A DNA stretch of 64,000 bases from a virus (Duplodnaviria > Caudoviricetes). Shown in pieces: positions 8,544 through 34,599 of the stretch. The notes beneath the pieces were generated by a model. The model saw nothing but the letters and a program-made list of their open reading frames with translations. It searched no databases and was not told the DNA's origin. The stretch lies in IMG/VR virus record IMGVR_UViG_3300025732_000016. One strand, written 5' to 3'. The position numbers and the translations under genes are program-made. Every line of letters starts with the position of its first letter. Position 1 is the first letter of the stretch.

Positions 8544-8999
8544 TTACCTTGCACTCTTATCAGCCAGTGTTGAAGATACCCAAGAGTTAGGCTTCACCTG
8601 GCACTTGAAGCCGTAGGCTCCCACCATTGCAGTGAGCTCTTTTACGTACTTCGAAGACTTGTGGACGGCAGTGTTGAGATCGAGGTGAACCTCTGGGTCC
8701 CTTCCAAACTCATCTCGAATTTCGCTTGCAACTGTGAGAGATCTAACAGCCTCCTCAGTAAGCCGCTGGTGTAGGTGGCGAAAATCAGACTTTTGCGCCT
8801 GGTCCCTGACGTAGAAGAACCTGCCTCCCTTGCCCGGGTAGTACACTGCAATCACTGTCGCAAACACCCACTGTCCACCGAGCATGTGTGAGTCTGATCC
8901 AACGAAGATCTGGACTTCCTTGTCACGAATGAGAGACTCGAGCTCTTCTGTTTTTGCCGTCTCTCCGCTTGGCCACTTCCACTTTCTTGTCGATAACAA
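8544..8999 (-). CDS. RNase H-like YkuK-family protein
   Basis: IFVGSDS, EAVRSL, EVHLD and WVSSTLADK resemble the YkuK family. Confidence 0.7.
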   Translation of the reverse strand: MLSTRKWKWPSGETAKTEELESLIRDKEVQIFVGSDSHMLGGQWVFATVIAVYYPGKGGRFFYVRDQAQKSDFRHLHQRLTEEAVRSLTVASEIRDEFGRDPEVHLDLNTAVHKSSKYVKELTAMVGAYGFKCQVKPNSWVSSTLADKSAR

Positions 9000-10242
9000 G
9001 GGCGCCTCCCGTATTTCTAACTAGCTGTCTGAACGCTTCATACGTTGAGAGGGCAATTTTGTAAGAGTCACCTGGGTACGCCCTACACCCAATCATCGTG
9101 ATTCCCTTTCTCCTTGACACGAGGAAGCATCTCATGCCATGGTCAAATCTTTCTTTCACTATCTCTCTTGTATCGCCGAACTCTTCACCGATGCAGACAG
9201 AAACTCTCCTCGAAGAGATTCTCGAGATGCGATTCTGCAACATTCGCAAGATATCAGGATCGCTGAACTGTGAGATCTCACCCCGCAGCTTTCTCAATAA
9301 CTCATCTCGCCCAGCAGTATCTCTCAAGTGAACCTTGAGCTTACCGTTCTCTACGACAACATCGTGACAGTTAGAGTCGTCCTCGTGGGAGATGAGGTTG
9401 ACAGTCTCCTGCCCAATGACCGTGCTCAAGTCTGAGATCGTAAATTCGTCCTCGACCGAGGTTCCGGGAGTGAGGGGCACGATGTCAAAAACTCCCCTCT
9501 GGTTGTTGGCGAAGATCGTGCTGGCCACCTCTGAAGAGAACGCTCTCGCAACGAGCAGGACTCGAGAATTGTCAAGTGAACACTTCTCGAGGAATGTGTT
9601 CACTTGACCGACGCTCTCGATGACCCCGTCAAAAACGACTATTTGTCTGGAAGTTAGGGATCGAGAGGTGTGAAAGCTCGGAGAGACTATCACTGGATAG
9701 GACGATGACTCGTCAACAGAGATGTGTGTAATGCCTCCGACTGAGACTGAGACATTCCCTGTGGCTCCCGCCTGCCCGATGCTGTCGAGTAACAGGCTTC
9801 TCACCGTCTCGTCTTGGACATCGTCGATGAGAGCCGGGAGGTCGCTCTCCAACATCGTCCTTGTACCCGATGCCACCAGTTTTTCGCCTGATAGAAGACG
9901 CAAGAAGAGGTATGAAGAGGCGGGTGAAGCCTGCTCAGCCCTGTACGCCGACAACAGGACCAATGAGCGAGCGATTCTTTCAATGTCACTCTTGGACTTC
10001 CAAGACGACAGGACCCTGAGAGAGTCTGCGGGTGACCCTCCCAGTGCCCTGTCCTTGAAGACCTCGACTATCGAAGAACCGATAGTCTCGATAGTCCCTT
10101 GAGCTATCTTCCTCGCCGCGGCAAGGACAGACTCACCGTCACCAGTGAGTCGTCTAGCTGTCTCTCCAGAGGTTGTTGGCGGCAAAGGTGATAATCTCCT
10201 CAGCAGATTCTGGTGTGTAGCCGTAGTCTTGTACAAGCGCAT
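8923..10242 (-). CDS. Divergent GroEL/Cpn60-like protein (start uncertain)
   Basis: IVVFDGVIESVGQVNTFLE...VLLVARAFSSEVASTIFANNQRGVFDIVPLTPG aligns by eye with the GroEL apical domain; GDGTT motif absent. Confidence 0.6.
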   Translation of the reverse strand: MRLYKTTATHQNLLRRLSPLPPTTSGETARRLTGDGESVLAAARKIAQGTIETIGSSIVEVFKDRALGGSPADSLRVLSSWKSKSDIERIARSLVLLSAYRAEQASPASSYLFLRLLSGEKLVASGTRTMLESDLPALIDDVQDETVRSLLLDSIGQAGATGNVSVSVGGITHISVDESSSYPVIVSPSFHTSRSLTSRQIVVFDGVIESVGQVNTFLEKCSLDNSRVLLVARAFSSEVASTIFANNQRGVFDIVPLTPGTSVEDEFTISDLSTVIGQETVNLISHEDDSNCHDVVVENGKLKVHLRDTAGRDELLRKLRGEISQFSDPDILRMLQNRISRISSRRVSVCIGEEFGDTREIVKERFDHGMRCFLVSRRKGITMIGCRAYPGDSYKIALSTYEAFRQLVRNTGGALVIDKKVEVAKRRDGKNRRARVSHS

Positions 10243-12079
10243 TGACCATTTCTGAGTACTTCTTCTGCTGCTCGTTGTCTCTGCTCTTTGACTTCGTGAC
10301 AATTCGCGCCATGTCCTTCACTGAGGAGATGAGGTAGCCCTCGATCGCCTCACGGAGGGGCTCGTAGGAGCGGTAGTCGACCTTCGTTCCGCGCCGAATC
10401 TTCGCGAACATGTAGGCCGTCACGTCAGCTCGGAACCCGTCCTTCATCGAGCCCGTGATCCCGATCTGCTCCTCGAGAGCCTTCATGAACTTCTCGTCAG
10501 GCTCTCTCTCCTCGGAGGTGACCCTGTCCTTCATCTTCTGTCGAGTCGTGAAGGCCTCTGCGTTGTCGAGGTAGTTGTCGAAGAGAGACTGGGCCTGCTC
10601 CTCGTAGGCGGTGACGAACGCCTTTGCGATCTCTCCCTCGAGGATCTTCAGGTACTCCTCACGGATGACCTTCTGGAGGATCTCGAGATAGTTCTTCTTC
10701 TTCTCCTCGTCGACAACCTGCTCCTTCACCTGCTTGATGAGAGCTTCGACGACTCTCATCGGAGTGATGAAACCCTTGTCAGAGTCGGTGAGTGCAGAGT
10801 CAATTGCCTTCGTGATGAATCGGGTAGAGATTCCCTCCATACCCTCGTGCTTTGCCTCATCACGGAGGTCAGTGATGTCGACCTTGCGCGTCCTGCCCTT
10901 CTCGACAATCTCCTGGCCGTCGTAGATCTTCATCTTGGTGAGGAGGTCACACTTCTGGGAAGGCTTGAGGCGGCTCATCACCGAGAACATTGCCGCGACC
11001 TTGATCGTATGGGGAGCGAGGTGATACTTGAAGTCGGACTTGCGAAGCATCTTCTCGTAGATCTTCATCTCCTGCGTGAGCTCCAGGACGTATGGAACCT
11101 CGATCTTCACGACGCGATCGAGGATGGCCTCGTTCGTGTGCTCAGACTTGAAGCGATTCCACTCTGCCTCGTTGCAGTGTGAGAGGATGACACCGTCGAA
11201 GTAGAGCATCGAGTTCTTGCCCGGTGTCGGAACATTCTTCTCCTGGGTCGCAGTGAGGATCGTGTGGAGGAACTCGATCTCGTTCTTGAAGATCTCGACA
11301 AATTCCACCACACCGCGGTTACCGACGTTGAATGCACCGTTGAGGTTCAGGACTCGGGGATCGTCCTCGGAGAACTTGTCCAGCTTTGAGATGTCCTCTG
11401 AGCCGATGAGGGCCGAAACGTCCTGAGAGTTGGCATCCATGGGAGGGACGACCGCGATACCCCTGCGCGCTCTCTGCGAGAAGGATGAGCGGACCACAGG
11501 GAACTTCTCGTACTCGCCCTTGAACTCTTCCATGAGCCTGTATCGACAGACCGGACAGAGGTCTCCCTCGATGTGGACACCGAGGATCTTCTCGAACTCC
11601 TCCCTCAATGACCTCGGAAGGAGGTGAAGCGGCTCCTCGCGAACTGGGCAGCCATCGAGATGGTAGACGGGCTCTGCAGCCTTCTCAAGAGCCTTCTTCA
11701 CCGCGTCGGCAAGTGCGCTCTTTCCTGATCCGACAGGTCCCATGAGAAGCAGGACCTGCCTGCTTTCCTCACCCTTCAGGGCAGCGGACTTCAGGAATCG
11801 CATGAGCTTTGCAATGACGCGCTCATGGCCGTAGAATTCGTCCCTGAAGTAGCTGTAGGTCTTTAGCTTGTCGCTGCCGAACAGCTTTCGGCAGCGAGGA
11901 TCAGTCTCATCCATTGTGCTCACACCGTATGACTCTACGGCGTCAACGAGTCTCCTCGCGGCGAGCTTTGTCACGTCAGGATCTTCCTTGACGAGCTTCA
12001 GGTAGTCGATGAAACTACCCTTCCAAGAGTCCTTCTGCGACTCAACCCTTTGCTTCTTAATGATGTCGAGAAAATCCAC
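10154..12079 (-). CDS. prkA: PrkA/YeaG-family AAA+ protein
   Basis: Walker A GPVGSGKS; GCPVREEPL, GNRGVVEFVEIFK and EAILDR motifs; GTG start after GGAGG. Confidence 0.9.
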   Translation of the reverse strand: MDFLDIIKKQRVESQKDSWKGSFIDYLKLVKEDPDVTKLAARRLVDAVESYGVSTMDETDPRCRKLFGSDKLKTYSYFRDEFYGHERVIAKLMRFLKSAALKGEESRQVLLLMGPVGSGKSALADAVKKALEKAAEPVYHLDGCPVREEPLHLLPRSLREEFEKILGVHIEGDLCPVCRYRLMEEFKGEYEKFPVVRSSFSQRARRGIAVVPPMDANSQDVSALIGSEDISKLDKFSEDDPRVLNLNGAFNVGNRGVVEFVEIFKNEIEFLHTILTATQEKNVPTPGKNSMLYFDGVILSHCNEAEWNRFKSEHTNEAILDRVVKIEVPYVLELTQEMKIYEKMLRKSDFKYHLAPHTIKVAAMFSVMSRLKPSQKCDLLTKMKIYDGQEIVEKGRTRKVDITDLRDEAKHEGMEGISTRFITKAIDSALTDSDKGFITPMRVVEALIKQVKEQVVDEEKKKNYLEILQKVIREEYLKILEGEIAKAFVTAYEEQAQSLFDNYLDNAEAFTTRQKMKDRVTSEEREPDEKFMKALEEQIGITGSMKDGFRADVTAYMFAKIRRGTKVDYRSYEPLREAIEGYLISSVKDMARIVTKSKSRDNEQQKKYSEMVNALVQDYGYTPESAEEIITFAANNLWRDS

Positions 12080-12087
12080 GTTCCCTC

Positions 12088-13413
12088 CTACGAGATCTCA
12101 AATTCTTCATTTTCTACGTCAGTGAACAGCTTGACGGGACCGTGCCAGATGTTCCTGATGAGCTTGACGCAGTTGTCTGCGTAATCGAGCTCGAGGTCCC
12201 TTCCGTCATGTTCATGCCGCAGTTCTAATGTATTGTCCTTTGCCACGTGATCGACGTATATCGTCGGAATCATATTGCCGGCAATGCTCTGCAGGAGGGC
12301 GGCCCTCACCTCCTGCCAGCTTTCGTCGTCTTCGACAATGTCGTCAACTGTCCAATCAGGGTTCTTCTTGCCCTTCGGACTGAAGGTGAAGAGGTTGAGC
12401 TCTCTCGCCTTCTCCTCGGTGAGGTACTGCATGATGAAGTTCTCGTCGTTGCAGACCTCTCTCGCAAGGAAGCACTCCTCTATGCCGAATCTCTTCTCGA
12501 TGTCCTTGAAGATTTCAAAACCGAGGTGGTATGGGTTGATCTTGAGACCCCACGGTCGAAGGACAGCGTTGTGAGTCTTGAGGAAAGGGAGGTGATGCTC
12601 ATCAGCGAGCTCAAGGTCATGGAGAATTCTGTAGTGCCAGAAGCTCGCCCACCCCTCATTCATAACCTTTGTCCTGATCTGCGGCCAGAAGTAGAGAGAC
12701 TCGTCATGGACTATCGAGATGATGTCCCGCTGCCAATCTGTGAGCTTGTGATTGTTGTCAAGGACAAACTGGAGGATGTCATACTCAGGCTCAAGCGGGA
12801 GGTCATCGATATTGAAGTCCTTCCACTCTCCCTTCTCGTCGTTCTTGATGAGGTCGATGTACTTCTTACGAAGCTCTCTCTCGGACGGTCTCGTCCTGCC
12901 GCGACGATCGGTCTGGTAAGTGAATGCGTGGCAGGCATCGATGATCTTCTCCACGGCCTCAATCCCTATCGTCGGGTCCTCGATGTAGGCCTTAATCCGC
13001 TTTCCGGCATTCCTGAACCTCATCGTGACGGTCGCGGCGTCAGTGTCCTTGAACGTCCGATTGTTCTTGAAGAAGTCCGAGTGGCCGACGCAGTGCGCCA
13101 TGATGAGAATCTGGAGGTACAGCGGGTTCTCCAGCATCAGGTATGCGATTGACGGATCAGAGTTGATGATGAGCTCATACGGAAGGCCCTCAGCGCCCGC
13201 GTTGTACATGAAGTGCGTCCTCTCGAACGTCTTTCCGTACGACCAGTGTGCATAGTGAGAGGGCATCCCGTGGTAAGCCATGTGACCGATCATCTCACGG
13301 TAGTCACAGGTCTCATAGGCTATCGGGTACCAGTCGAGGCCGTGCTTTCTCGCGATCTCGCAGATCTTCTCGTCCCATTCCTCGAGATCACTCAAGTTGT
13401 AGTCACCCATCAC
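12088..13413 (-). CDS. spoVR: SpoVR/YcgB-family protein
   Basis: GMPSHYAHWSYGK, YELIINSDP, AHCVGHSDFFKNN and KVMNEGWASFWH motifs. Confidence 0.9.
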   Translation of the reverse strand: MMGDYNLSDLEEWDEKICEIARKHGLDWYPIAYETCDYREMIGHMAYHGMPSHYAHWSYGKTFERTHFMYNAGAEGLPYELIINSDPSIAYLMLENPLYLQILIMAHCVGHSDFFKNNRTFKDTDAATVTMRFRNAGKRIKAYIEDPTIGIEAVEKIIDACHAFTYQTDRRGRTRPSERELRKKYIDLIKNDEKGEWKDFNIDDLPLEPEYDILQFVLDNNHKLTDWQRDIISIVHDESLYFWPQIRTKVMNEGWASFWHYRILHDLELADEHHLPFLKTHNAVLRPWGLKINPYHLGFEIFKDIEKRFGIEECFLAREVCNDENFIMQYLTEEKARELNLFTFSPKGKKNPDWTVDDIVEDDESWQEVRAALLQSIAGNMIPTIYVDHVAKDNTLELRHEHDGRDLELDYADNCVKLIRNIWHGPVKLFTDVENEEFEIS

Positions 13414-14585
13414 TCACTCCCAAAGAACTTGCTAAAGACAGGCCAAACGTCATCCTTACTCACCAGCGTGGCAGTGCGAAGAACTGGCGAGAGAGCCTTG
13501 AGATTGTTCATGAGCTTCGAGGCAGAGTCACTCTGCCAAGCGGGAGTCGAGCCCTTCGGCTTGATCTCACAGTAGCCGACCATCTGGCTGATGTCACAGA
13601 GATCCCTGTACATGTCGAAGGCCTTCGCGTTGTCTTCTTCGAAGTTGTCGCCGTCCGTGCAGTGGAACACATAGACGTTCCAAGCCGAAGGATGGTACCG
13701 CTCGTTCGCAATCTCAATCGCGAGCTCAGGAGCCGAGGAGACGTGCGTGCCACCGGATGATCCCCTCTTGAAGAAGGAGTCCTCATCAGTCTCGAAAGCC
13801 TCAGTCGTGTGACCGATGAAGACAATCTCGACCTTCTCGTACTTGTGGCGGATGAACTGGTAGAGGAGGAAGTAGAAGGACCTTGCGATGAACTTGATGT
13901 CCTGGGTCATCGAGCCGGAGACGTCCATCATGAAGAAGATGACGGCGTTTGTCGCCTCCTTCGGTTTCGCCTTGATGTGGTGGTACCGGAGGTCGTTGTC
14001 GTGGAATGGGAAGACCTCATTGCCGTCCTCATCCACCTCCACCTCTCCGGCCCTTCGTGCTGCCGCGAGGCGCTTTATCCGCTGGATGGCAGACTCTCTC
14101 TTGTCGAGCCGCGGTGGAATGCCCTGGGGGCGTGTGCCATGTCGCTTTGGCCTCTCCTCGAGAACTGTTCGCAGCTTCTTCCTCTCTAGCTCTGGGAGAT
14201 TCAACGAGGAGAAGAGGTACTCTGCGAGCTCTTCGAGGGTAATCTCGACCTCGTAGAACTCCTCTCCCTTGTCCTTACCAGCCTTGCTGCCGGAGCCCTG
14301 CCCCTGCTGTTGACCCTTCCTTACGACCTGCCCCTTTTGGATGTCGGCGTTAGGAGCAGAGCCCACCTGCTTCTGACCCTCGTTGTCGCCATAGACGAAC
14401 TGCCACTCCTTGATGCCACGAACAGGAATGCGGATCTTCTTCTTCCCATCCTGCCCAATGATCGACTCTTCAGAGACGATATCTGTGATGCCGTCTTTGA
14501 TCGCTTTCTCAATCTTTTGCTTGTGACGAGAACGGTCCGCTGCGGAGCGGTCTGCTGAAGTCTTGTGTTCACGGAAGATAGACAT
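13410..14585 (-). CDS. yeaH: YeaH/YhbH (DUF444) vWA-like protein
   Basis: DRSRH, IRIPVRGIKE, MIDAS-like MDVSGSM, SGGTHVSS and TDGDN motifs. Confidence 0.9.
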   Translation of the reverse strand: MSIFREHKTSADRSAADRSRHKQKIEKAIKDGITDIVSEESIIGQDGKKKIRIPVRGIKEWQFVYGDNEGQKQVGSAPNADIQKGQVVRKGQQQGQGSGSKAGKDKGEEFYEVEITLEELAEYLFSSLNLPELERKKLRTVLEERPKRHGTRPQGIPPRLDKRESAIQRIKRLAAARRAGEVEVDEDGNEVFPFHDNDLRYHHIKAKPKEATNAVIFFMMDVSGSMTQDIKFIARSFYFLLYQFIRHKYEKVEIVFIGHTTEAFETDEDSFFKRGSSGGTHVSSAPELAIEIANERYHPSAWNVYVFHCTDGDNFEEDNAKAFDMYRDLCDISQMVGYCEIKPKGSTPAWQSDSASKLMNNLKALSPVLRTATLVSKDDVWPVFSKFFGSE

Positions 14586-14625
14586 CTAGTAATAGATATC
14601 CATCCCGTGCCACTAGTAACCAGTG

Positions 14626-22965: not shown

Positions 22966-24855
22966 TCAACGCAGAGTGTAATCGCTGCAGAACTTTCTCT
23001 CATGAGAAGTAAGATTATGTTCACTGCGGATTGGAAGAGAGTCTGCAGACTCCATGAGAGTCTTTGAGACTCTTGAAGCAGATTCATCGTTGTTGTCCCA
23101 TACGTCCTCGAAGAGTCTATCGACTACCTTGCGACGCGAGTTGAGAAAGTGCTCAACTAATTCACGGTTAGGTGAAACCTTTAAGCTCACCCCGATTCTC
23201 TCTTCAGTCTGAGCTCTCGATAGGGTTAGGGCCATAACTGCAAGTTCAGCCCCGATGTCGACCAACCTACCGAGTATGAGCTGTCGCATCTCAAGCTTTG
23301 GTCCTCTCAGAAGCATCTGGTGAAACAAAGTTAGGGCGAGCTTTCTTGTTTTTGATTCTATCCAGTTGAGGTGTGCAACAAAAGAGTCATCGAACTCAAG
23401 AAATTTATCTGTTATTGGACCGAACAAGTTTCCGATGTACCACTTCGGATAGATGAGCGCGCACTTTCCGACCACCTTGAGCTTGTCCCAAAGAGTGGCT
23501 CCCTTCTTGAAAAGACCACCGGCATTCTTCAGGTGACCGTCAAGGGCCTCGCGGGCAATGAAGAGGTGCATGATGTCCGTGGTCCCTTCGACAATACGGT
23601 TGATTCGAGTGTCACGAAGTGCTCTCTCTATCGGAAATCCGACCTCGCCTCTTCCCTCAACCGACTTTTCTGTTTCAAATCCGCGACCACCTCTCAACTG
23701 GAGAGCGGTGTCAACCACCTCCCAACTCCTCTCGCTGTTCCACATCTTGGCGGTGGCAGCTTCCATACGGATGTCCACATCATGCTTGTCACTGAGGGCT
23801 GCGCCGTAAAGTGCTAGCGTCTCCATCGCATACGTGAGCCCTGCAATGTCTGCCAACTTCTGCGCACCTGCCTCGTGTTCACCCACCGCCTTACCCCACT
23901 GAGTCCGACTCTTGGCCCATGAGGCAGAGAAGTCTCGGATGTCCTTGGAGACGAAGGCTGCCACAGCGGGAATTCCCAGACGACCGTCATTGAGAGTGGT
24001 GAGAGCCAGCTTGAGACCCTTGCCCTCACCGAGGATGACATTGTCACCGGGAACCTTGACATTCCTGAAACGGATGAGACCGTTCTCGATGGCACGGATA
24101 CCGAGGAAACGACAGCGGTGAACGACCTCCAAGCCCTCTGAGCGTCCCTCGACCACGAATGCCGTGATTCCCTTCCTTCCATCCTCCGAGGTGGTGCGCG
24201 CCATGACGACGTAGAGGTCTGCAAGGGTTCCGTTGGTACACCAGAGCTTCTCACCATTGAGGACCCATGAACCATCAGGCTGCTTCACGGCCTCAGTAAC
24301 CATGCTGGCTGGATCAGATCCAGCACCGGGCTCAGTGAGAGCGAATGCCGATAGCTCACCCTTGGCGATTCGAGGAAGCCACTTCTGCTTCTGTTCCTCG
24401 GTGCCAAAGAGCTTCAGTGGCTGTGGAACGCCGATGGACTGGTGTGCTGAAAGCGTCGCTGCGGTGGAACCGCAGTACTTTGCTACTGTGCCAAGTATCC
24501 GCACGTAGTTTGTCTGCGACATTCCAAGGCCACCGTACTTCTTGTCAATCTTGATGCCAAAGAGACCGAGATCTGCGAGTCCGCGCCACACATGTGGAGG
24601 AATCTCCTGGTTCTTGTCAATGAGGTCTCCGTCAAGATTGCCTTGTGCCCATGCTTCAAACTTCTCGATCACTGAGTCTCCCTCCTTCCTGTCCTCCTCA
24701 CTCTGCAGTGGGAACGGGAAAGCAAGGCCCATATCAAGTTCACCCATGAACATGGATCCCATGAATGACTTGGACTTCCAGTCGAGCTCACGGCTCTCTT
24801 CTGCGACCTGGATCGACTTTGCCTCTTCCTGTGTGCGATTCTTGTTCTCTATCAT
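22966..24855 (-). CDS. Acyl-CoA dehydrogenase family protein
   Basis: FALTEPGAGSD, LNGEKLWCTNG, TTLNDGRL, GGRGF and RIVEGTTDI motifs. Confidence 0.9.
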   Translation of the reverse strand: MIENKNRTQEEAKSIQVAEESRELDWKSKSFMGSMFMGELDMGLAFPFPLQSEEDRKEGDSVIEKFEAWAQGNLDGDLIDKNQEIPPHVWRGLADLGLFGIKIDKKYGGLGMSQTNYVRILGTVAKYCGSTAATLSAHQSIGVPQPLKLFGTEEQKQKWLPRIAKGELSAFALTEPGAGSDPASMVTEAVKQPDGSWVLNGEKLWCTNGTLADLYVVMARTTSEDGRKGITAFVVEGRSEGLEVVHRCRFLGIRAIENGLIRFRNVKVPGDNVILGEGKGLKLALTTLNDGRLGIPAVAAFVSKDIRDFSASWAKSRTQWGKAVGEHEAGAQKLADIAGLTYAMETLALYGAALSDKHDVDIRMEAATAKMWNSERSWEVVDTALQLRGGRGFETEKSVEGRGEVGFPIERALRDTRINRIVEGTTDIMHLFIAREALDGHLKNAGGLFKKGATLWDKLKVVGKCALIYPKWYIGNLFGPITDKFLEFDDSFVAHLNWIESKTRKLALTLFHQMLLRGPKLEMRQLILGRLVDIGAELAVMALTLSRAQTEERIGVSLKVSPNRELVEHFLNSRRKVVDRLFEDVWDNNDESASRVSKTLMESADSLPIRSEHNLTSHERKFCSDYTLR

Positions 24856-24902
24856 GTGACTCCTCAATGAAAGGATAACAAAGAATCAACGATGTATCAA
24901 AG

Positions 24903-25269
24903 TGGTGGACCCGAGGGGAGTCGAACCCCTGTCCGAAGCATTATCATCCTTCCGAGATACGTGGCCTGCCGGAAGCTCACCGGCGAGTGTCGGAACCTTT
25001 GGTCCCCGTCACGGTGTCCTGTCTATCTTCGTTCCCCGACCGTCCACCGATCCGTCGGTTCACTGCGGGTCTGAAACTCACCCGGAAGGATTCGACCATT
25101 CTCCTTCCGAACGCCACGGGGTCTAGATGCCCCGGGACTTCAATCAGGCCGCGAGGGCCTCGCTGAAGTGGTCAGTGTTGTTGGCACTTACTTGCTTGGT
25201 CCGATGCGGGAGACCACCCCTGCCACGCCCTTCAGGAATCCGACACCCCGTCGAAGCCAGTACGGGCCC
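24903..25269 (-). ncRNA. ssrA: tmRNA; tag peptide (A)ANNTDHFSEALAA
   Basis: 5' GGGCCCG pairs with 3' CGGGUCC-A-CCA including G3:U; T-loop UUCGACU; UAAGU precedes the resume codon GCC; tag ends ALAA-stop (25144-25185). Confidence 0.95.
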
Positions 25270-31528: not shown

Positions 31529-32407
31529 TTAGACTTCAGGACAGGGTTGTTCAATCTGATTAAGGGCCCAGTCAACCTGAATGGTTTGTCCGTTTGCCCT
31601 CATCTGGTAGGTGTCACCCCCAATCTCAATGTTCTCCGTCCACTTTCCGAGGAACATGATGAGGTCGGACTTTTCGATGTGACCGCCGCTGGCAAGCCTC
31701 TTCACGGCATTCTGGACGCCGTGGAGGTGACGTTCGGTGAACTCTGGGAAGTTGTCACCCGCAGCCTTCGCAAGCCACTCCACGAGGAGGGGATACGAGG
31801 ACTCCTCGATGCCGTCGTAGCCTCGATACTTCATATACTTCAGGATTCGAGATCCGAGGAACGGAGAGTGGATCTGGTTGATGCGAAGCTTTCGACTGGC
31901 CTCCAACTCGCGCCAGTCCTTCGGATGGATGAGGACATCACCCACCAGGGCAACCTGACAGTTGACCATGTCGAAGCGGGAGATGCATTCCTCTGGGGTC
32001 TTGCTGATAAGGTCAGGCCTGTCGATGAGCTGGACTTTGAAGTTGATGTCCCGCTTCTCAGGGATGGCCGCGGAATTAATCGAGACCCAGTCCATGGTCT
32101 CCTGTGCAAAACCCGCCATGGAACGACGATCCTTGAAGGAGCTCGTCGTCTTCTTGGCGCCCTCCTCCGAGGTGAAGAAGACGTCGACATCGCCTGCGTG
32201 TGTATAGACACCTTTCCCGTCGTCCTGGCTGACGTACTCGTGCAGAGAGTCGCCCCGGAGGAGAGCGCGAGCAAACCCGCCGGCGATGAAACCGCCGTTG
32301 TGAAACGAATTTCGCAAGCGAGCCGAACCGTGGAGAATCGCTCTCATGATCTCCATGTTCTCGCCCTTGACGACATCGAGGACGTGGGTCTCTACGAACT
32401 GGGACAA
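31529..32407 (-). CDS. CCA-adding/poly(A) polymerase head-domain-like nucleotidyltransferase
   Basis: IAGGFARALL..GDVDVFF (GGxxR..DxD) and SRFDMVNCQVA (RRDFTINA-like). Confidence 0.6.
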   Translation of the reverse strand: MSQFVETHVLDVVKGENMEIMRAILHGSARLRNSFHNGGFIAGGFARALLRGDSLHEYVSQDDGKGVYTHAGDVDVFFTSEEGAKKTTSSFKDRRSMAGFAQETMDWVSINSAAIPEKRDINFKVQLIDRPDLISKTPEECISRFDMVNCQVALVGDVLIHPKDWRELEASRKLRINQIHSPFLGSRILKYMKYRGYDGIEESSYPLLVEWLAKAAGDNFPEFTERHLHGVQNAVKRLASGGHIEKSDLIMFLGKWTENIEIGGDTYQMRANGQTIQVDWALNQIEQPCPEV

Positions 32408-32432
32408 TGTGCACCCGTGGTTTGGACGTAGA

Positions 32433-32508
32433 TGGTGGACCGGGTGGGGAACGATCCCACGACCTGCGGATTAAGAGTCCGACGCTCTACCGACTGAGCT
32501 ACCGGTCC
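32433..32508 (-). tRNA. tRNA-Lys(CUU) with atypical T-loop
   Basis: Loop CU-CUU-AA; T-loop AUCGUUC; CCA. Confidence 0.85.
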
Positions 32509-32512
32509 AGTG

Positions 32513-32600
32513 TGGTGGGGAAGGAGAGAATTGAACTCCCGACGTCCTTAGGAACCGGATTTACAGTCCGGTGCTAGCTACCAGCACTAGCAACTTCCCC
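32513..32600 (-). tRNA. tRNA-Tyr(GUA)
   Basis: Loop CU-GUA-AA; long variable arm; CCA. Confidence 0.9.
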
Positions 32601-32604
32601 AAAG

Positions 32605-32681
32605 TGGCCTCCCCTGCAGGACTCGAACCTGCTACCTCCGACTTAGAAGGACGGCGCTCTATCCAGATGAGCTAAGGGGAG
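32605..32681 (-). tRNA. tRNA-Arg(UCU)
   Basis: Loop CU-UCU-AA; CCA. Confidence 0.9.
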
Positions 32682-32735
32682 AAGTTTTATCCGTCTTTCC
32701 GGACCGCCAGACTGGTTATCTCACAATCATTGAAG

Positions 32736-32811
32736 TGGTAGGCGGGGTGGGGTTTGAACCCACGACCGGTCGGATATAAGCCGACTGCTCTGACCGCTGA
32801 GCTACCCGCCT
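32736..32811 (-). tRNA. tRNA-Ile(UAU)
   Basis: Anticodon stem GUCGG/CCGAC; loop CU-UAU-AU; A73; CCA. Confidence 0.9.
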
Positions 32812-32898
32812 GTAAGGGGCAGAGATCTTGTTGAGCAGATTTATTGGCATCCACGACCGGACCAGCATGGTAGAATATAAATCAGGGAACCAGATTGT

Positions 32899-33210
32899 TC
32901 AAAGGCTCCGCAACTTTTCGATCAGGACCTTCACGCTCGACTCGGTGGCCCCGACAAGCGTGTCAATCCGCTCACCGTTGTGAAACCCGATGACGGTTGG
33001 AACGGCCTGCACCTTCATCTTCTGGGAGAACTGCTCACCGCCCTCGATGTCGACGTATGCAAAGACGATATCAGGAGTCTCAAAAGAGATCTTCTCGACC
33101 TTGGGCTTCAGGAGCTTGCAGGGCATGCACCACGTGGCCCCGAACTGGACGATCACGTGAGTGTTGCCGTCGATGAGTTCCTGGATGTTGTCGTCGTTCC
33201 GGTTGATCAT
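32899..33210 (-). CDS. Thioredoxin
   Basis: FGATWCMPCK and VQAVPT. Confidence 0.9.
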   Translation of the reverse strand: MINRNDDNIQELIDGNTHVIVQFGATWCMPCKLLKPKVEKISFETPDIVFAYVDIEGGEQFSQKMKVQAVPTVIGFHNGERIDTLVGATESSVKVLIEKLRSL

Positions 33211-33482
33211 CTCTTCTCCCTGTATGGGGTCACAGAAGCTATGAATTTGGTTGGATCCACTCGCATGTAGCTCTTGGTCGAGTGGGGATTGCCCTCTTCA
33301 GTGCGGACAATCGTAATCTCGTTTGTGAGAAGGTGGTGTTCTACGACCTCAGCGACGTACCTCTTCATGTAGGTGCCGTATCCCCACTTCGTTCCGATCG
33401 CAGGGAACCTTGATGATCGCTGGCGCATGAACCACGCGATGTGAACGGTAGCGGCGATGAGGAGGGATAGCCCGAACAGCAT
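33207..33482 (-). CDS. Hypothetical protein with N-terminal membrane anchor
   Basis: Hydrophobic N-terminus; ATGA overlap. Confidence 0.5.
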   Translation of the reverse strand: MLFGLSLLIAATVHIAWFMRQRSSRFPAIGTKWGYGTYMKRYVAEVVEHHLLTNEITIVRTEEGNPHSTKSYMRVDPTKFIASVTPYREKR

Positions 33483-33499
33483 TGCTATGGGACTAAGTA

Positions 33500-33576
33500 T
33501 GGCTCCCGATCCCTGATTTGAACAGGGGACCCACGGATTAACAGTCCGTTGCTCTAACCAACTGAGCTAATCGGGA
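33500..33576 (-). tRNA. tRNA-Asn(GUU)
   Basis: Loop CU-GUU-AA; CCA. Confidence 0.95.
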
Positions 33577-33582
33577 ATGAAG

Positions 33583-33656
33583 TGGAGCGGGCACCGGGAT
33601 TCGAACCCGGTTATCCAGCTTGGAAGGCTGGTGCACAACCCATATGCCATGCCCGC
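33583..33656 (-). tRNA. tRNA-Gly(UCC)
   Basis: Loop CU-UCC-AA; U73; CCA. Confidence 0.95.
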
Positions 33657-33665
33657 GATTTGAAA

Positions 33666-33760
33666 GAACATGGAGACCCGGAGCTTGTACAGCGTCGGCC
33701 AACCCGGTTCGGCTGTGCTCCCCACTCACATGGGATACTGTACACCCGCCGTCCATGTTC
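33666..33760 (-). ncRNA. Candidate unknown structured ncRNA (three-way junction)
   Basis: 9-bp closing stem, 7-bp UGUACAG/CUGUACA stem and two hairpins (one GUGA tetraloop), between tRNA-Arg and tRNA-Gly. Confidence 0.55.
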
Positions 33761-33764
33761 AAAG

Positions 33765-33841
33765 TGGCGTCCACGACAGGATTCGAACCTGTGACCTATC
33801 GCTTAGGAAGCGATTGCTCTATCCAGCTGAGCTACGAGGAC
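33765..33841 (-). tRNA. tRNA-Arg(CCU)
   Basis: Loop UU-CCU-AA; CCA. Confidence 0.95.
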
Positions 33842-33879
33842 TTGTTCCGTTGATTGGTTTGGTTCCAACCAACATGCGT

Positions 33880-33908
33880 AATATAATTTACCTGTGAAAA
33901 CTGGACAA
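33880..33908 (-). promoter_or_regulatory. Putative sigma70-type promoter for the Arg-ncRNA-Gly-Asn cluster
   Basis: TTGTCC-N17-TATATT. Confidence 0.55.
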
Positions 33909-33916
33909 CTTTTCCT

Positions 33917-34183
33917 TCACTTATTTTCTCTCGGGATCAAGTGATCCTCGGTGAACCAGAGATTGCGCCCACCCACGTAGACGAGCCACATGGTGAAGCG
34001 ACCGCCCGTGTCCTTCTCTGGACCGTCAATCACGAGGCCCACCTCGCCGGGCTGTGGGAAGTACCCCCGACCCGGCATGATCCTGTCGGTGAGGTCCCTC
34101 GAGACGAGGCCCTCTGCGAATACGAGGTCCACTGAGGTTTCGATGGGGCAGAAAGAGACGAGGGCTCCAGTCTTGATGCTCAC
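33917..34183 (-). CDS. Hypothetical SH3-like protein
   Basis: GTGA-coupled start; IKTGALVSF...PGEVGLVI. Confidence 0.55.
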   Translation of the reverse strand: MSIKTGALVSFCPIETSVDLVFAEGLVSRDLTDRIMPGRGYFPQPGEVGLVIDGPEKDTGGRFTMWLVYVGGRNLWFTEDHLIPRENK

Positions 34184-34599
34184 TTTCTTTTCTCGTCGCA
34201 AGGGATGCACAGGGTCTTCACCCAGCCCCCTCGAATGGGCTTACCGGGACTGCCGCACTGTTCACAAGTCCTCACGGACATCGCCTCGGCCATCTGGATG
34301 ATTCCCCTCACGTAGTCGTCAGAGTTGTCCACGTAGAAGCGGAGTCCCCCGAACTTCTCCTTCACCTGCGCAGCCTTCGTCTGGAACTGCTCCTCGAACT
34401 CGGTGGGAGTTAGGTGGCGCTTTGCCCTGTGGTGGTTGAGGTGGTTCTGCACGCTTGAGCACAGGCAGTCGATGATGTTGTACCAGCCATCGCCCACCGA
34501 GATCCCGTAGCTGACGACCTCGTTCTCACCGTACGCGTTCGTTCGGGTGAAGATTTCAGGGTACTTCTCAATGAGCTTGTTCTCGAGTTCTGGTGACAC
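34180..34599 (-). CDS. Hypothetical phage protein with C-terminal Zn ribbon
   Basis: GDGWYNII, QVKEKFGGLRFY and CEQCG...TLC..C. Confidence 0.7.
   Translation of the reverse strand: MSPELENKLIEKYPEIFTRTNAYGENEVVSYGISVGDGWYNIIDCLCSSVQNHLNHHRAKRHLTPTEFEEQFQTKAAQVKEKFGGLRFYVDNSDDYVRGIIQMAEAMSVRTCEQCGSPGKPIRGGWVKTLCIPCDEKRK

Follow-up and report, generated by a model that had tools for sequence, protein, structure and literature searches.

What does a phage keep in its tRNA array at a point where two neighbouring tRNA genes are separated by more than one hundred nucleotides that encode no tRNA? The window analysed here is the whole 64,000-nt stretch of DNA from a virus of the Caudoviricetes (IMG/VR record IMGVR_UViG_3300025732_000016), whose minus strand carries 19 tRNA genes and a tmRNA gene as called by ARAGORN and Rfam. 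By far its longest ORF-free tRNA-to-tRNA spacer is the 108-nt non-tRNA stretch at 33657-33764 (minus strand), which separates tRNA-Arg(CCU) from tRNA-Gly(UCC); the remaining adjacent tRNA pairs in the window have spacers of 4-6 nt, and one pair has a spacer of 54 nt. Judged by sequence comparison, this spacer is the gene for a conserved small structured RNA that lies outside the known families. The tRNA genes placed by ARAGORN confirmed both the position and the minus-strand orientation that the original prediction had assigned to a structured RNA of about 95 nt (33666-33760). In 5' to 3' order on the minus strand, the locus consists of:

33765-33841, minus strand: tRNA-Arg(CCU) with encoded CCA (ARAGORN, Rfam), which usually precedes the element on its 5' side (in 35 of 44 distinct loci)
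33657-33764, minus strand: the complete inter-tRNA spacer, 108 nt, presumed to be the primary excised RNA (sequence, ARAGORN, fold)
33583-33656, minus strand: tRNA-Gly(UCC) (ARAGORN), which follows the element on its 3' side after 3-13 nt in 42 of 44 distinct loci

ARAGORN called no tRNA at 33657-33764. When positions 33400-34000 were searched against Rfam 15 with cmscan under permissive filters, the spacer matched no family, whether the gathering score or E<=10 was the threshold; at the latter, the search returned just the three tRNAs, their antisense echoes and chance matches outside the element. Covariance models of pseudoknotted ribozymes are insensitive, such that a very distant Rfam relative could escape this search. 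These results support the earlier view of the element as neither a tRNA nor a member of a known family. A coding reading is ruled out by the length variants of the element, which are +1, +8, +9, +11 and +13 nt.

Four different stretches of the element were used as exact search patterns, which recovered it in nine IMG/VR contigs; a single scan of JGI/ENA metagenomes recovered it in about 48 contigs, nearly all from lakes. In total, 42 distinct versions of the element were obtained. A pattern independent of the element's 3' half found no further IMG/VR contigs, and the pattern scan of genome contigs gave two chance matches in GC-rich coding DNA and one at the edge of a MAG contig. A covariance model (R1) trained on 34 distinct sequences found exactly one copy in every element-bearing contig and none in 14 more distant loci. 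Among the isolate phages of INPHARED, no DNA match to the region or to the element was found. Weak R1 matches in Tunturiibacter phage Tunturi_5 (19.8 and 14.3 bits) were judged to be chance, since they lie away from tRNAs and contain many mismatched pairs. The nearest isolates, with helicase identity of approximately 35%, are Tunturi_5, Bacillus phage G and Xanthomonas phage Xoo-sp13. Contigs with lengths of 151-171 kb have an estimated completeness of 45-51%, and for a contig of 257 kb it reaches 76%, which makes these phages jumbo phages; over all the contigs analysed, completeness ranges from 9 to 76%. By the homologues retrieved, the element is a newly recognised and narrowly distributed RNA family of uncultured freshwater jumbo phages, as far as is visible.

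The element lies on the tRNA strand in all 44 distinct loci. The CCA of tRNA-Arg(CCU) is found 3-4 nt 5' of it in 30 loci and about 30 nt away in five more, and in the remaining loci the 5' neighbour is tRNA-Met, an unrecognised tRNA-like gene or the contig end. The tRNA-like spacing that had been noted for the window is borne out, with 3-4 nt between the tRNA-Arg CCA and the element and 3-13 nt between the element and tRNA-Gly.

On its minus strand the element has a minimum free energy of -42.9 kcal/mol (z = -2.9), and one of 200 shuffled sequences folded equally well; the plus strand folds worse (z = -2.5). The window variant forms a 9-bp helix (P1), a 7-bp helix (P2), a GUGA-capped hairpin (hairpin 1) and a second hairpin, with loops of 4 nt and 6 nt. 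Its segments, again from 5' to 3', are:

33752-33760, minus strand: P1 5' strand, pairing with 33666-33674 (98% of cells paired)
33745-33751, minus strand: 5' strand of the P1-P2 internal loop, CRRCGGG, nearly invariant; candidate partner 33710-33713 (pseudoknot PK1) or 33679-33682 (nested extension)
33738-33744, minus strand: P2 5' strand, pairing with 33686-33692 (100% paired)
33720-33735, minus strand: hairpin 1 with a GNRA tetraloop, here GUGA (alignment, replacement hairpins)
33703-33719, minus strand: nearly invariant 17-nt strand after hairpin 1, holding the 5' half and loop of the predicted second hairpin (alignment A3)
33697-33702, minus strand: variable 6-nt block with three versions (family comparison)
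33693-33696, minus strand: invariant GACG junction strand before the P2 3' strand (alignment A3)
33686-33692, minus strand: P2 3' strand, partly fixed by the metagenome search pattern
33675-33685, minus strand: 3' strand of the internal loop, RR followed by an invariant 9-nt GC-rich block (alignment A3, pair counts)
33666-33674, minus strand: P1 3' strand (cell pairing, covariation counts)

We examined the support for each helix in two alignments. In a MAFFT alignment of 34 distinct sequences (A3), 98% of cells are paired in P1, 100% in P2 and 93% in hairpin 1. In the second alignment (A6), which comprises 42 distinct sequences and was fitted to the model and hence leans towards it, 98.5% of the cells of P1, P2 and hairpin 1 are paired, with changes on both sides at four pairs (16 cells). 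The covariation score of A6 was 0.090 versus 0.049 in shuffles and was reached by none of 500 shuffles, and sliding the partners by 1-3 columns cut its pairing to 28-60%. Homologue diversity is low and most pairs never vary. P1 contains one pair that varies between C-G, U.G and U-A and three further pairs with single wobble-compatible changes to G.U. P2 is invariant apart from its closing pair (U.G 32, U-A 6, C-G 1), and its 3' strand is also invariant in the IMG/VR matches obtained with patterns that excluded this strand. In hairpin 1, the pair next to the loop is U-A in 29 cases, U.G in five and C-G in six. The tetraloop is GCAA, GUGA or GUAA, with two exceptions (GCAG and ACAA). In three lineages, longer and unrelated hairpins with GGGA or GGAA loops, one of them with a 5-nt loop, substitute for hairpin 1, and a fourth lineage carries a 13-nt insertion in it. 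Retention of the GNRA cap upon replacement indicates selection on the RNA. Across P1, P2 and hairpin 1 we counted 83 G.U cells and 2 A.C cells; the G.U cells would be mismatches on the plus strand, and the structure is therefore that of an RNA of the tRNA strand alone.

With 42 distinct homologues, the predicted P1, P2 and GNRA hairpin are supported, and the covariation among these homologues agrees with them. The fourth predicted helix fared differently: the second hairpin forms in the window variant, but just 45% of the family's cells are paired in A3. Of the three-way junction that had been proposed, the coaxial P1/P2 stack and the variable GNRA hairpin remain, while the third arm is conserved and appears mostly unpaired or pseudoknotted. 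Each variant can make some local hairpin of 3-7 bp in this arm, in differing registers.

The strands that do not belong to these helices include invariant or nearly invariant blocks that could pair with one another. RNAalifold brought CRRC (33748-33751) together with GYYG (33710-33713) and joined the CCGGG block to the 3' strand of the internal loop. Both candidate pseudoknots can form alongside P2 and are 99% compatible across the family. In the first (PK1), the sole variable pair is G.U in 14 sequences, G-C in 13, A-U in seven and A.C in none, and this pairing of the 33745-33751 strand is suggestive. A nested alternative, in which 33745-33748 would pair with 33679-33682, is equally possible. 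In the second (PK2), the CCGGG block of the 33703-33719 strand would pair with 33678-33682, and both sides are invariant and hence give no covariation signal. The three versions of the 6-nt block are unrelated in sequence and out of step with phage relatedness (they differ, for example, between relatives G001 and G002), which suggests recombination inside the element.

We compared the conservation of the element with that of its neighbours in 24 loci with all three genes. Mean pairwise identity was 0.82 for tRNA-Arg and 0.74 for tRNA-Gly, 0.89 for the whole element with indels in hairpin 1 counted, and 0.96 for the element's 5' 29 nt, which no search pattern fixed. The element forms a single tight sequence family and tRNA-Gly comprises several divergent alleles. 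The helicases of element carriers are 62-63% (G001, G002, G006) or 55% (G008) identical to that of the window, and the elements of G001 and G002 are 86-90% identical to the window's. The tRNA genes themselves have moved. In locus L082, where the helicase is 51% identical, tRNA-Arg, tRNA-Gly and tRNA-Asn (12868-13104) are 92-95% identical to those of the window (33500-33841), and the tRNA-Gly of L006 is 100% identical to the window's; the tRNAs of close relatives are merely 73-86% identical. By these identities, the tRNA arrays are mosaics of swappable modules exchanged between distant phages. Because tRNA modules themselves were exchanged recently, the identity of the element across phages does not reflect constraint alone.

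Three relatives lack the element. In L003, tRNA-Arg(CCU) and tRNA-Gly are 4 nt apart and the RNA-ligase-like protein is 96% identical; in L082 (contig G004), the same Arg-Gly-Asn trio likewise has a 4-nt spacer; and in L081 (contig G005), whose helicase is 79% identical, tRNA-Gly is preceded by an ORF together with a stretch that resembles a promoter. R1 found no copy elsewhere in the contigs of these three relatives. Their arrays manage without the element, which is therefore dispensable for the array and comes and goes as a unit. L003 keeps all of the neighbouring protein genes, among them a CCA-adding-like gene and a trio of polymerase, RNA-ligase-like and nucleotidyltransferase genes that are 73-96% identical, and no neighbouring gene tracks the presence of the element. 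As a separate observation, the 164-kb contig G004 is classed as a provirus in IMG/VR and the others as linear; if correct, this would be odd for a jumbo phage of this group, and it may be a mis-call.

The original prediction also held that the element is co-transcribed from a promoter at 33880-33908. We found a promoter-like site at this position:

33880-33908, minus strand: sigma-70-like promoter upstream of tRNA-Arg (-35 box 33908-33903, 17-nt spacer, -10 box 33885-33880)

Its boxes match the consensus at 9 of 12 positions and hold their position in eight diverged loci (alignment A5), and no terminator-like site was found in 32300-34300. We also searched public sequencing data. Twenty-four runs share words with the region, six of which are RNA libraries, and four metatranscriptome runs were analysed as assembled contigs. 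Depth in these four runs lies mainly on tRNAs, including those of other organisms. Three contigs with depths of 2.5-5.5 join the element's 3' part to tRNA-Gly (and tRNA-Asn), with the element's centre uncovered. These low-depth contigs may represent precursor RNA or carried-over DNA; contigs cannot show RNA ends, and co-transcription fits them. In one sub-lineage (L007:6579-6609, L010:2907-2932, L020, L046 and L051), tRNA-Arg and the element are separated by an AT-rich insert of about 30 nt. A few nucleotides before P1, this insert has boxes that closely resemble the octamer of T4 late promoters, TATAAATA. Going by this likeness, a late promoter of its own may serve the element in that sub-lineage.

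We compared the element with known RNAs of similar position, size or shape. By position, the closest analogues are RNA C (species 1) and RNA D (species 2) of phage T4, which are likewise non-tRNA genes on the tRNA strand of a phage tRNA cluster with tRNA-like spacing. T4 rnaD and rnaC come directly after tRNA-Arg (annotation of AF158101), as the element usually does, and the two T4 RNAs are close to it in size (119 and 139 nt). The T4 RNAs are expressed late and have been confirmed by northern blotting, and their function is still not known (PMC9697503). They differ from the element in that RNA C ends in a tRNA-like T-arm, which the element lacks, and in that the T4 RNAs are located at the end of the cluster, whereas the element lies between two tRNAs near the promoter. 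Homology to rnaC and rnaD was rejected, as their local alignment scores were reached by 31-44 of 500 shuffles, and R1 found no match in the T4 tRNA region (locus L068).

The YrlA RNAs (RF02553) share with the element a length of about 100 nt, ends paired in a long stem with an internal loop, and a multi-helix head, and some Y RNA-like RNAs are reportedly encoded by phages near tRNAs. Identity with this family was rejected: RF02553 gave no score on the element at E<=10, a weak YrlA match was confined to the tRNAs, and the element has no T-loop-like module, unlike the tRNA-like head of YrlA. No TROVE/Ro60 gene was found among 59 ORFs of the window or in contigs G001-G003, which are 20-51% complete. 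GOLLD and ROOL are phage or prophage ncRNAs whose function is not known, that are often found beside tRNAs and some of which were first described from lake metagenomes (PMC12286853). They are 5-8 times larger than the element and multimeric, and Rfam gave the element no match to either. The element shares a three-helix junction with type II hammerhead ribozymes, and its majority variant carries the heptamer CUGAUGA by the junction-closing strand. A hammerhead was rejected because the heptamer is missing from the window and nine other variants, the GAAA junction reads UA in all variants, and Rfam found no match. The best match to CR-I of RNase P (E. coli rnpB, M1 RNA) comprised 12 of 13 nt with one gap and was reached by 75-144 of 1000 dinucleotide shuffles; the likeness was judged to be chance, and Rfam found no RNase P match on the element. 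A miniature inverted-repeat mobile element was also rejected, given one copy per contig at the same junction and inverted repeats that behave as an RNA helix.

We propose that the element encodes a small structured ncRNA of about 96-108 nt that would be cut out by tRNA processing and act in trans via its invariant core, a reading in which our confidence is evenly balanced. We infer its transcription, processing, stability and action in trans from the arrangement and conservation of the locus. The promoter upstream of tRNA-Arg would drive a transcript containing tRNA-Arg, the element, tRNA-Gly and tRNA-Asn. RNase P, by generating the 5' end of tRNA-Gly, would free the 3' side of the element. 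Its 5' side would be freed by an endonuclease that cuts within the short, U-rich spacer following the tRNA-Arg CCA, and the terminal 9-bp P1 would then seal both ends. The functional part would be the nearly invariant core, comprising both strands of the P1-P2 internal loop and the 17-nt strand after hairpin 1, whose GC-rich blocks could pair mutually as pseudoknots, while the GNRA-capped hairpin 1 would serve as a variable peripheral brace. The core would most likely bind a protein in trans; a small ligand is less likely. Throughout, the element would behave as an independent and dispensable module of a mosaic tRNA array.

An alternative is that the element acts in cis, as a processing or insulating element of the tRNA precursor, and that the excised piece is a by-product. 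The rod of about 20 bp formed by P1, the internal loop and P2 could be an entry site for an RNase III-type enzyme or RNase E, or could prevent misfolding of the neighbouring tRNAs. The constant placement of the element relative to both tRNAs and the long, near-continuous helix in most single-sequence folds agree with such a role. We also count in its favour that T4 species 1 RNA is reported to be a substrate of RNase III in vitro. However, L003 and L082 manage the same Arg(CCU)-Gly(UCC) junction with a 4-nt spacer, the other tRNA pairs listed for the window have spacers of 4-6 nt, and a processing site has no need for an invariant 17-nt strand, a GNRA side hairpin or invariant loop strands. 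We regard this alternative as rather unlikely.

In a second alternative, the element would represent a new class of RNA whose invariant GC-rich strands form a pseudoknotted active core. It would act either by catalysis, as a ribozyme that cleaves itself and thereby releases the tRNA-Arg 3' end, or by ligand binding, as an aptamer. Invariant junctions and loops combined with a GNRA-capped peripheral hairpin of variable length are the typical pattern of such RNAs; the two candidate pseudoknots are compatible across nearly the whole family, and one position within them is G-C, G.U or A-U and never A.C. Structure directly after the CCA would presumably block exonucleolytic 3' trimming, and some endonucleolytic cut after the tRNA-Arg CCA would therefore be needed. 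Against these points, Rfam found no ribozyme or riboswitch match even at E<=10, the window variant lacks the hammerhead-like heptamer and the required GAAA junction is absent, the pseudoknot strands never vary and so provide no real covariation, and we found no precedent for a riboswitch within a tRNA array. We consider the alternative doubtful. In its most specific form, which is more doubtful still, the invariant strands would fold as a double pseudoknot with the GNRA hairpin as a brace, and the RNA would cut itself or be switched and so separate tRNA-Arg from the remaining transcript. If true, phage tRNA arrays would carry a portable catalytic or sensing module.

It is similarly doubtful that the element is a decoy or partner RNA in a conflict over tRNAs, where it would titrate a tRNA-targeting defence nuclease of the host or serve RNA-repair enzymes of the phage. 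The idea draws on the CCA-adding-like gene within the array, on the nearby trio of polymerase, RNA-ligase-like and nucleotidyltransferase genes 1.6 kb from the element, in which the RNA-ligase-like gene gave a weak match to Pfam RNA_ligase, and on the patchy, accessory nature of the module, as is often seen for counter-defence genes. Yet the element has no 7-nt anticodon-like loop, no T-loop and no tRNA score, and L003 keeps the CCA-adding-like gene and the repair trio without it, from which it follows that the repair enzymes do not depend on the element.

The patchy distribution of the element, out of step with helicase relatedness, the sharp presence/absence boundaries with empty sites, the incongruent internal 6-nt block and the demonstrable exchange of array modules would also be expected of a selfish or neutral palindromic insertion, with the 9-bp strands of P1 as terminal inverted repeats, that spreads by recombination, or alternatively of a protein-binding site acting at the DNA level. 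Such an insertion would have to account for a single copy per contig that is always found at the same junction and for replacements of hairpin 1 that retain the GNRA cap, and a DNA site or cruciform would have to account for wobble-compatible changes on one strand only (the 83 G.U versus 2 A.C cells); we consider either form very improbable. Least credible of all is a decayed tRNA gene, since the tRNA-sized slot, the 7-bp P2 followed by UA (recalling an acceptor stem and nucleotides 8-9) and the D-arm-less tRNA-Arg-like gene just upstream in some relatives are outweighed by the missing tRNA score at E<=10 and ARAGORN call, by 4-nt loops in place of a T-loop and an anticodon loop, and by the finding that the element varies less than any other segment of the locus where decay would be expected.

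The two stable non-tRNA RNAs of the T4 cluster have been a puzzle since the 1970s. Our comparisons suggest that a tRNA slot is filled by a compact non-tRNA RNA with strong conservation in unrelated giant phages of lakes as well, that this element travels as an independent module of the array, and that it adds a family missing from RNA catalogues. Its small size (about 96 nt), clear boundaries and natural presence/absence variants make it tractable for in vitro processing, probing and binding experiments. Its broader importance would hinge on its function, whether as a decoy, a ribozyme or the partner of a protein.

Several further features of these arrays were observed. Upstream of the element in L005 (296-377), and also in L008, L013, L025, L032 and L050, a gene that ARAGORN did not call occupies the position of tRNA-Arg(CCU). 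Its predicted fold (z = -3.4) comprises an acceptor stem, an anticodon arm with CCU, a T-arm, a CCA and a long extra segment but no D-arm; it may represent a tRNA-like gene that lacks this arm or a tRNA in decay. The second-longest spacer of the window, 54 nt between tRNA-Ile(UAU) and tRNA-Arg(UCU) at 32682-32735 (minus strand), has no unusual fold (z = -0.56). A phage tmRNA gene (24903-25269, minus strand; 88 bits) with the tag ANNTDHFSEALAA is located at the end of the tRNA region, and the distant relative L091 likewise encodes a tmRNA. Among the ORFs of the window, at about 8900-14600 (minus strand) and elsewhere, Pfam searches revealed a stress module of PrkA kinase, DUF444 and SpoVR, Hsp20, two DNA methylases, a PhoH-like ATPase that also has a PIN domain and, at 22966-24867, an acyl-CoA dehydrogenase. 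It is unusual for a phage to carry so many host-like genes of metabolism and stress.
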